From Promethearchaeota archaeon (GTDB lineage: Archaea; Asgardarchaeota; Lokiarchaeia; Sigyniarchaeales; SOKP01): a DNA stretch of 64,000 bases. Positions 14,011-22,073 of the stretch are shown piece after piece; position 1 is the stretch's first letter, and each line of letters begins with the position of its first letter. A model generated the notes under the pieces. It saw nothing but the letters and a program-made list of their open reading frames with translations, searched no databases and was not told the origin of the DNA. The DNA is taken from the NCBI GenBank assembly GCA_048939995.1, contig JBHLOY010000013.1, positions 1 through 64,000 of the forward strand, written 5' to 3'. The position numbers were made by a program, and so were the translations under genes.

Positions 14011-14643
14011 TTAAGTATTATTTTCATACTTTTTAATTATCATCCTTGTTAAACTCTCAAAAACATTCTTTAAGTTCTCCCCTGTAAGAACATTACATTC
14101 GAAATAAGCATCAAGTTGTTCAGATCTTAAAAATTCTAAAGCTTGTTCTTTAGATACTTGGCTTAGATTATTTGAATTATCATTATTACCCATCAATATT
14201 AAAGGAATATTGTTAGTATTATCCCTTATTATCTGAATCCATTTTGGTAAGATATATAATGTTTTAGAATTTGATATTTCAAACATTAAAAGAGCACCCA
14301 ATGCACCCCTACAGTAAAGAGGGACCAAAACTCTCCAGCGTTCTTCAGTTGCTAGATCCCAGATTTGTAATTTAATGTTAAGGCTTTCTATTTTAATTTC
14401 TTTTATCTCGAAACTAATCCCGATTGATAGCTTTGTATTTGCCTTAAACCATGAATTTCCATAATTTTCTAAGTATGTTATCTTTCCCGTATCATTATGC
14501 CCTACTAACAAGACTTTAAATAAAAAATGAGGGTCAAAATGAGCTTTTTTTTTAACTTTCTTTTCCACAAAAGGTTCTTTTTTAATGTTAGATAATTCTT
14601 CCCTTAATTTTTCATTATCTATATTGCTCTTCTTTGATCCCAT
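14011..14643 (-). CDS. Rab-like small GTPase with degenerate G motifs
   Basis: FLFKVLLVGHNDTGKI, SIGISF, KLQIWDLATEERW, YCRGALGALLMF, LMGNND, YFECNV. Confidence 0.85.
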   Translation of the reverse strand: MGSKKSNIDNEKLREELSNIKKEPFVEKKVKKKAHFDPHFLFKVLLVGHNDTGKITYLENYGNSWFKANTKLSIGISFEIKEIKIESLNIKLQIWDLATEERWRVLVPLYCRGALGALLMFEISNSKTLYILPKWIQIIRDNTNNIPLILMGNNDNSNNLSQVSKEQALEFLRSEQLDAYFECNVLTGENLKNVFESLTRMIIKKYENNT

Positions 14644-17183: not shown

Positions 17184-17699
17184 CTATTTCTTTGTTGTTG
17201 CTTTCTTTTTAGGGGCTTTTTTTGGGCTCTTTTTAGGTGTTGTTTTCCGGGGCTCTTTTTTAGGGCTCTCTCTCGATTCTTCTTGAAAATTCAATTGCCA
17301 CCCTACTCCCTCTGAATCTTCGAATCGTGCATACCAAGCGCCCCAAAATGTCTTTTGAAGTTCCATTTTAATTTTAAACTTTTTAGCCTTCGCTTTCTTA
17401 TAGATTTCTTCAAGATCTTTCTTATTATCTAGATGAAGAACGATTTCAACATTTCCACTACCAGGGGCTCCCATTGTATTGTCAGCGAGCATTATCTCAG
17501 CACTTTTTACATCTAATACTGCATGCATAGTGGAATTATTATAATCAAAATTCTTAGGAAATCCAAATTCTTTGCCCATTTCTTTGGTAAAGGGCATGTG
17601 ATCTACTAATTTTGCTCCTAGTAATTCTTTATATAACTCAATAGCAGCTTTTCCATTCTTTACTAATAAAAAAGGATTTGCTTTAATCAAATTTTTCAC
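17184..17699 (-). CDS. VOC/PhnB-family protein with Lys/Pro-rich C-terminal tail
   Basis: TMHAVL, ELQKTFWGAWYARFEDSEGVGWQLN; tail SPKKEPRKTTPKKSPKKAPKKKATTKK; likely TTG start at 17690 after GGTGA. Confidence 0.85.
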   Translation of the reverse strand: MKNLIKANPFLLVKNGKAAIELYKELLGAKLVDHMPFTKEMGKEFGFPKNFDYNNSTMHAVLDVKSAEIMLADNTMGAPGSGNVEIVLHLDNKKDLEEIYKKAKAKKFKIKMELQKTFWGAWYARFEDSEGVGWQLNFQEESRESPKKEPRKTTPKKSPKKAPKKKATTKK

Positions 17700-21278: not shown

Positions 21279-21402
21279 TTTAATCTTTTTTTCTTAAATT
21301 TTTTCTTAATTGTATGATAATTACTCTTTAAGTTATTGAGGTAATTTTTAAATAGAATTTTATACTACATTTTGATTAATAAATACTACATAGGTGAATT
21401 TA

Positions 21403-22041
21403 TTGTTTAAGAAATTTATGGACGCTTTAGGTTTAACAAGTAACAAGATTAGTGATTTAGTTAAGGAGAGTAATCACTATATCAATGCCGAAGAAAATGT
21501 GACCAAAGATATTAACAAAACTATGACTGCCTTAAAAAGTTATGCAGAGACAGAAACACCTTCATTGGGAGAAGCCATAAATTCATTGGCTCAAACTTTT
21601 GAAATCATTGAAATAGAACGCAAGGAGAAAGTATCCAAGCTAAGAGAGCAATATATTGCTCCTTTGAATAATTTGATCGCACATTTAAAAAGGTTACAAA
21701 CTGAGCAAGACGAGGCAACAAAAGCAGTTAAAGAAGTTGAAAAAGCTGAAAAAACTCTTAGTAAGGCTCAGAGTAAACCCAATGAAAAATTAAAACCGGG
21801 CGAAATAGAAAGTGCTGAGACTGCTTTAAAAGCCGCGAAACAAAAAGCAAAAAAAGAAGAAAACGATGCAAAGACTGCCGCAGAAGAATTTAACAAGGTA
21901 AAATTAGAAACAATCCAGAAAGTTCTCCGTAATATGGTAGAGATTGAAAAATTATACCATGAAAAGATACTCACCGCTATCTCAAATGTCAAACAAAAAG
22001 CTGAAGCAATAAAGATCGAGGAAGAATCTAAGATAGCATAA
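21403..22041 (+). CDS. BAR-domain protein (FAM92/CIBAR-like)
   Basis: All-helical three-helix BAR pattern: YAETETP.L, ER...V.KL...YIAPL, I..AET.L, F...K...I......IE..YH.K.L. Likely TTG start at 21403 after AGGTGA (ORF track start 21394). Confidence 0.7.
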   Translation: MFKKFMDALGLTSNKISDLVKESNHYINAEENVTKDINKTMTALKSYAETETPSLGEAINSLAQTFEIIEIERKEKVSKLREQYIAPLNNLIAHLKRLQTEQDEATKAVKEVEKAEKTLSKAQSKPNEKLKPGEIESAETALKAAKQKAKKEENDAKTAAEEFNKVKLETIQKVLRNMVEIEKLYHEKILTAISNVKQKAEAIKIEEESKIA

Positions 22042-22073
22042 TTTAGAAATTTTTTTCTCTTTTTTTTCTAATT

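Follow-up and report, generated by a model that had tools for sequence, protein, structure and literature searches.

The gene at positions 21403..22041 (+) of the window, which is the whole stretch of 64,000 nucleotides of DNA that was analysed, encodes a 212-aa protein that sequence profiles and structure models confirm as a real BAR-domain protein of the stand-alone classical type; judged by sequence, the eukaryotic proteins closest to it are FAM92/CIBAR. We consider it fairly likely that this protein binds membranes as a dimer and there senses or stabilises positive curvature, as an accessory factor and not as a core morphogen of all Lokiarchaeia; its fold, the type of its dimer, its conserved core and its basic tips were predicted by computation. 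Testable predictions follow from a family that is now defined, with what is best read as its specific sister among eukaryotes, with a modelled dimer and with a surface charge that clearly differs.

In eukaryotic membrane traffic the BAR domain is the chief curvature module, and eukaryotes use the banana-shaped BAR dimer to bend membranes. References to a putative BAR protein of Lokiarchaeum go back to the first genome, in 2015 (PMC4917890), a 'Vps5-BAR' in Asgard archaea was described by Eme et al. (PMC10307638), and two BAR proteins, which could not be matched to the FAM92-like family, were found in a co-IP of Lokiactin from L. ossiferum, at an enrichment that was not significant (PMC13716822). 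All of these proteins are of the same superfamily and lineage, but the papers speak of BAR or Vps5-BAR with no mention of FAM92; the present family matches FAM92 and not Vps5, and the published Asgard BAR proteins may or may not belong to it. In the literature, no searchable paper contained both 'FAM92' and 'Asgard', though a supplementary table may carry such a label, and no biochemical study of archaeal BAR proteins was found. Asgard BAR proteins were already known, whereas their link to FAM92 was not described in any paper that we found. NCBI gives the label 'BAR domain-containing protein [Promethearchaeota]' to homologues of 67-79% identity, and in Pfam and the ESM Atlas the precomputed label is already FAM92.

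The gene, its fold and its affinity to FAM92

The open reading frame was found where the original prediction had placed it, from a TTG start at 21403 to a TAA that ends at 22041, and the segments quoted there are residues 47-88, 135-142 and 161-190. A Shine-Dalgarno-like AGGTGA (21392..21397, +) lies 5 bases upstream of the TTG, and because of this spacing, and because close homologues begin with MFKK, the TTG is preferred over the GTG at 21394 and the ATG at 21418, which are less likely starts. NCBI has an identical 212-aa protein (P0264), which begins with MFKKF. Past the stop codon, a T-rich tract (22050..22069, +) is, from its sequence, likely to be an archaeal oligo-T terminator; it lies ahead of a convergent beta-lactamase-family gene which, together with a CAAX-protease-like gene, neighbours the BAR gene in the window. 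The host genome is that of an Asgard archaeon, from the order shared with Ca. Lokiarchaeum ossiferum, and a six-frame search showed that it carries a single copy of the BAR gene (next match at E 0.002). A eukaryotic contamination was excluded by a GC content of ~31% that matches the flanks, the absence of introns and three neighbours in common with a genome of the same genus (G109).

In the AlphaFold2 monomer (pLDDT 91), three long helices span residues 2-48 (21406..21546, +), 53-124 (21559..21774, +) and 134-211 (21802..22035, +). Helix 1 provides the antiparallel interface on the concave side of the dimer model, helix 2 contains P87, the counterpart of the FAM92A kink proline (mouse P167, human P98), which is invariant in 71 close homologues, and F163, K167, L175, E182, H186 and L190 in helix 3 match dimer-core positions of FAM92A. 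The helix-2 angle of FAM92A is 33 degrees (PMC11266426). The model has what defines a classical BAR, namely three long antiparallel helices over ~200 residues, the second of them kinked. Its best Foldseek match was FAM92A (9uhd, TM 0.89, rmsd 1.6 Å over 203 columns), with BAR domains in all of the best 50 matches listed, and the best 37 VIA-align rows were all BAR-superfamily chains, with Z up to 17.6. The BAR fold claimed in the original prediction was thereby borne out. In VIA-align, however, arfaptin (Z 17.6), SNX5 (16.5), BIN1 (16.0) and FAM92A (16.0) came close together, FAM92A standing 1.6 Z under arfaptin and tied with SNX5 and BIN1, so shape alone cannot choose the BAR subfamily. SNX-BAR/Vps5, amphiphysin, BIN1, endophilin, arfaptin and APPL all share the fold (Z 14-17.6), but the sequence scores of SNX-BAR/Vps5, N-BAR, arfaptin and APPL with the archaeal profile are at most 23 bits, and the archaeal protein has no PX, PH or SH3 domain, all of its 212 residues being BAR.

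The inside of a tube is I-BAR geometry, and the suggestion that the protein shapes protrusions would most directly need an I-BAR-like protein, lining the protrusions from inside and pushing out (negative curvature). Basic charge is concentrated at the tips, as it is in I-BARs, and weak matches to the IMD profile were found in 6 of the 105 aligned sequences. This reading is nonetheless improbable, as the monomer model fits a classical BAR much better than an I-BAR or an F-BAR: against the values for FAM92A, Foldseek gave IBARa/I-BAR a TM of 0.55-0.59 at an rmsd of 6-7 Å, and F-BARs mostly a TM near 0.4. Moreover, the kink proline is retained, and FAM92A itself is a classical BAR. A classical BAR would suit the necks and bases of protrusions and not the interior of the tube. 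A role in shaping protrusions also has to be weighed against the many near-complete genomes of the genus in which the gene was not found.

The specific affinity to FAM92/CIBAR that was originally predicted was found both with Pfam and with profiles in both directions, ahead of that to arfaptin, I-BAR, N-BAR and Vps5/SNX. The Pfam FAM92 model (PF06730) was the best among BAR models and above its gathering score (29.6 bits where 23.6 are needed, with profile positions 30-219 of 225 aligned), and phmmer against the PDB found CIBAR1 (E 4.6e-9 and 1e-7), the next match being at 0.03. With a profile of 64 archaeal domains, FAM92A scored 82.5 and 78.2 bits among PDB sequences and the next, amphiphysin, 23.3 bits. 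In the reverse direction, a profile of 40 eukaryotic FAM92-like domains gave 95.4 bits for the query and 32.9 for the best other PDB BAR, Vps5, scores that are biased upward because the set was chosen by the archaeal profile, whereas the forward direction and Pfam are unbiased. Controls on the eukaryotic profile scored at most 7.3 bits (1000 shuffles), at most 22.1 bits (1000 heptad-block shuffles) and -4.6 bits (reversed sequence). When searched against 1.84 billion representatives, the close-family profile found archaeal paralogues and then eukaryotic FAM92-type proteins (animals, protists). Archaeal and FAM92 sequences have 29 consensus positions in common, including Y47, E51, R73, P87, F163, K167 and H186, and the human FAM92A segments given in the original prediction agree with the printed alignment to PDB 8ceg.

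An assignment to Vps5/SNX was ruled out, as Pfam Vps5 (PF09325) matched neither the gene at E 0.01 nor the protein at E 10, and FAM92A scored 78-82 bits against at most 23 for other BARs. The protein is all-helical and K/E-rich, and JGI names of homologues read 'SbcCD' and 'MlaD', as would be expected if its BAR matches were compositional noise in a PspA/ESCRT-III-like protein or a generic coiled coil; the shuffle and heptad-block controls, the lack of any PspA or Snf7 Pfam match up to E 10, and a VIA-align Z of 9.7 over just 112 residues for CHMP3, compared to 16-17.6 over ~190 for BARs, rule this out in practice and make it extremely improbable. The outcome that the original prediction had named as telling against it, best profiles of a generic coiled coil or PspA/ESCRT-III, did not occur.

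Predicted dimer, surface charge and proposed membrane binding

The two-copy model scored 0.80, compared to 0.14 for the best control; among solved proteins, 20 of 30 homodimers and 1 of 23 monomers come up to the mark used for a dimer, and the pass may stem from the resemblance to the solved FAM92A. The runs share at least 97% of contacts, with a pLDDT of at least 89. The model predicts an antiparallel BAR-type homodimer with a central six-helix bundle, as in FAM92A; a predicted dimer without BAR architecture would have told against the original prediction. Contacts are antiparallel via helix 1 and the last part of helix 3 (43-19', 40-26', 186-186'), and the FAM92A dimer likewise has antiparallel helix 1 / helix 3 contacts (PMC12269497). 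Mutations at L113, L120, Y127, F256, I257 and H264 break the FAM92A dimer, Y127K/F256Q being among those tested (PMC12269497), and the six corresponding positions (V33, T40, Y47, M178, V179 and H186) all lie inside the predicted interface. In the dimer-core set of FAM92A, Y47, E51, K167 and H186 are identical, the counterpart of L120 being a small residue; E51 and K167 are likewise part of the predicted interface. The inter-chain salt bridge E131-K245 of FAM92A corresponds to E51 and K167, both invariant in the 71 close homologues; E51 (FAM92A E131/E62) lies in the helix 1-2 loop YAETETPSL (residues 47-55; 21541..21567, +), which is common to FAM92.

Mutation of region 1 in helix 1 of FAM92A abolishes ~90% of its liposome binding (PMC12269497). 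The counterpart of this lipid-binding region in the archaeal protein (residues 28-36; 21484..21510, +) has a net charge of -1 according to the alignment and charge tallies, R108, K109, R112, R114 and K116 of FAM92A being replaced by N28, A29, N32, T34 and D36. The mean charge of region 1 is -0.45 in 64 archaeal domains, compared to +4.07 in 42 eukaryotic ones, and that of region 3 is also lower in archaea (0.27 versus 1.98). The central basic lipid patch of FAM92 on helix 1 is thus missing from the archaeal protein at the five positions aligned and tallied, and compared with FAM92A its lipid binding should hence be less strong or located elsewhere. The lysine-rich arm tip (K107, K110, K114, K117, K121, K125, K129 and K131; 21721..21795, +) is the likely membrane contact: K114, K121, K125 and K131 are invariant in the 71 close homologues, and R201, R203 and R205 of the FAM92A distal tip correspond to K121, Q123 and K125, with a mean charge of +2.16 in archaea and +2.31 in FAM92. 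Five further tip positions add a charge of +3.1, in archaea only.

The N-terminal segment (residues 1-18; 21403..21456, +) is amphipathic and could be an H0-like anchor or merely the start of helix 1. Its hydrophobic moment over 18 residues is 0.54 (rank 2 of 195 windows), and the best 11-mer moment is 0.63 in archaeal homologues versus 0.48 in eukaryotic FAM92, the archaeal N-terminus being the more amphipathic. AlphaFold2, with a pLDDT of 64 over residues 1-10, joins the segment to helix 1; residue 1 aligns with BIN1 residue 53 and FAM92A residue 11, both within helix 1, and the structural alignment has no separate H0 position. Residues 5, 8, 11 and 12 contact the partner chain in the dimer model. 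For these reasons an H0 is possible only: the amphipathic N-terminus of the original prediction stands, and a free H0 helix is no more than a candidate, residues 2-48 being modelled as one helix.

We propose that the dimer would act as a crescent whose lysine-rich arm tips attach it to the cell membrane on the cytoplasmic side, probably assisted by the amphipathic N-terminus, and which would prefer positive curvature, as at invaginations, protrusion bases, branch points and necks. Since the central basic patch of FAM92 is missing, a protein partner may find room at the centre of the concave face, which is neutral or acidic. Against our proposal stand the lost charge of region 1, the near-neutral charge of the whole 212-aa protein (38 K+R versus 37 D+E), the patchy range and the non-conserved neighbours. 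The loss of the central patch would also agree with a dimer that serves mainly as an arfaptin-like protein scaffold for a small GTPase or actin regulator, its membrane contact being secondary or recruited. Arfaptin, solved bound to ARL1 (4dcn), is the best VIA-align row (Z 17.6), and an ARF GTPase was present with the two BAR proteins in the Lokiactin co-IP (PMC13716822). The tip lysines are, however, invariant or strongly conserved, the N-terminus is amphipathic family-wide, and no partner gene is linked, so that a mainly scaffolding role is rather unlikely, though it deserves some weight; it is compatible with the membrane-binding dimer, which remains our best explanation.

Evolution and range of the family

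In an IQ-TREE mixture-model tree, which is unrooted, 58 archaeal and 30 eukaryotic FAM92 rows formed the two sides of one branch (100/100); the tree took in only the archaeal family and eukaryotic FAM92. None of the archaeal rows is placed inside the sampled eukaryotic FAM92 (100/100). This split, together with the profile gap of 55 bits and more, agrees with the archaeal relative of FAM92 that had originally been claimed, and the best reading is that, of the known prokaryotic families, the one in Lokiarchaeia stands closest to FAM92/CIBAR, as a sister group and not as a ciliary CIBAR orthologue. With FAM92A/CIBAR1 and FAM92B/CIBAR2 (PF06730; 9uhd, 8ceg; PMC12269497, PMC11266426) the protein shares the three-helix classical BAR fold with its kink proline, the YAxxExPxL loop, the E-K salt-bridge pair, the dimer-core residues and the basic arm tips, at an identity of ~20-22%. 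FAM92, in contrast, has the RKxxRLRDK central lipid patch and a long C-terminal tail, both of which the archaeal protein is without. The archaeal host has neither a cilium nor a mitochondrion, and the ciliary or mitochondrial role of FAM92 is not to be carried over to the archaeon; a search of the genome for Chibby (PF14645), run without a working positive control, gave no match. In our reading the protein is a classical BAR that is sister to FAM92 without being its orthologue in function.

The likeness to FAM92 might instead reflect no special sister relation, either because FAM92 is the slowest-evolving eukaryotic BAR family, the archaeal family being related equally to every BAR, or because of an ancient transfer from an early eukaryote to the ancestor of Lokiarchaeia, and we give this possibility considerable weight, somewhat short of an even chance. 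It gains from the tree having no outgroup and from the ~239 genomes of other Asgard classes, in which there was no convincing match, only short marginal ones (best E 1.8e-4 or weaker), and it loses from the profile gap, which holds in both directions, from the 29 common consensus positions and from the place of the archaeal sequences outside the sampled eukaryotic FAM92. Since the archaeal sequences span two orders and include deep paralogues, any gene transfer must be ancient. [quoted passage not shown] Simple vertical inheritance is made less convincing by a range that is patchy and confined to Lokiarchaeia.

The family was found in 61 of 400 Asgard genomes, all in the class of the window (Lokiarchaeia), the search having scored few candidates per genome, so that a genome counted as negative is one where the family was 'not found' rather than 'absent'. 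It was present in 45/134 genomes of the window's family, 11/41 of its genus, 9/14 of the family of the cultured strains and 2/2 of a Helarchaeota-like family; several genomes of the same genus, estimated to be 99-100% complete, gave no match. The PF06730 cut-off was passed in 40 of the 400 genomes, all of the window's order. The 209 homologues also speak against eukaryotic contamination, as they bear Lokiarchaeia names where they are named, apart from a few labelled 'Thorarchaeota', 'Hermodarchaeota' or 'Hodarchaeota' at 66-72% identity, which we suspect to be mislabelled MAGs, as the labels conflict with the GTDB scan.

Gene context and multidomain forms

In ~75 loci, neither a conserved operon nor a linkage to ESCRT or actin genes was seen, and the neighbours vary. 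GTPase-like neighbours recur at a few BAR loci, in an arrangement that is not fixed; in the window, a Rab-like small GTPase gene (14011-14643, -; Pfam Ras, 107 bits) lies 6.8 kb from the BAR gene.

Among cultured strains, P. syntrophicum has a single-domain member (DSAG12_01423, QEE15597.1), and L. ossiferum has NEF87_003839, NEF87_002122 and a third, single-domain gene. Tandem BAR-BAR chains occur in L. ossiferum (UYP47554.1, UYP45837.1), in Ca. Harpocratesius repetitus (MCF2140564.1) and in relatives, and tandem loci are at L082:6208-7563 (+), L084:6645-8288 (-), L085:6682-8058 (-), L095 and L096. In the AlphaFold2 model of a 451-aa tandem chain (pTM 0.79), two three-helix units were found, one half matching FAM92A at TM 0.90, which suggests that the chain may fold as a single-chain pseudo-dimer. 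Another tandem BAR protein, P0155, has a coiled-coil insertion of ~100 residues at the first arm tip (residues ~130-240). Three adjacent, very divergent BAR genes lie at L089:5941-8411 (+) in a Helarchaeota-like genome, which has a fourth copy elsewhere (L090); the two genes that were tested had no BAR-family Pfam match.

A dedicated but weak search for longer fused forms returned none, and the fusions described here came from other searches. A HEAT-repeat (PBS lyase-like) domain N-terminal to the family BAR domain was seen once (P0162, L097:5405-6952, +). The searches did not recover the Vps5-BAR-Vps28 fusion published for Thorarchaeia, and the two long Vps28 proteins examined are UEV-like fusions that do not match BAR profiles. 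UEV-Vps28 fusions have been reported for Heimdallarchaeota, and another Asgard family has proteins of 465-489 aa in which an N-terminus that looks UEV-like by eye is followed by a coiled coil and, at the C-terminus, a Vps28 domain (L119:682-2079, +; L129:610-2079, +); these are not BAR proteins. A match to the C-terminal part of Vps28 also lies within an open frame of ~796 aa (G000:C28:163431-163712, -) and recurs in the same genome family. Lastly, Lys/Ser/Thr-rich polybasic tails are present on BAR-family C-termini at L084, L086 and L089, and such a tail is also carried by an unrelated 171-aa protein of the window (17184-17699, -), which is glyoxalase/PhnB-like by eye.
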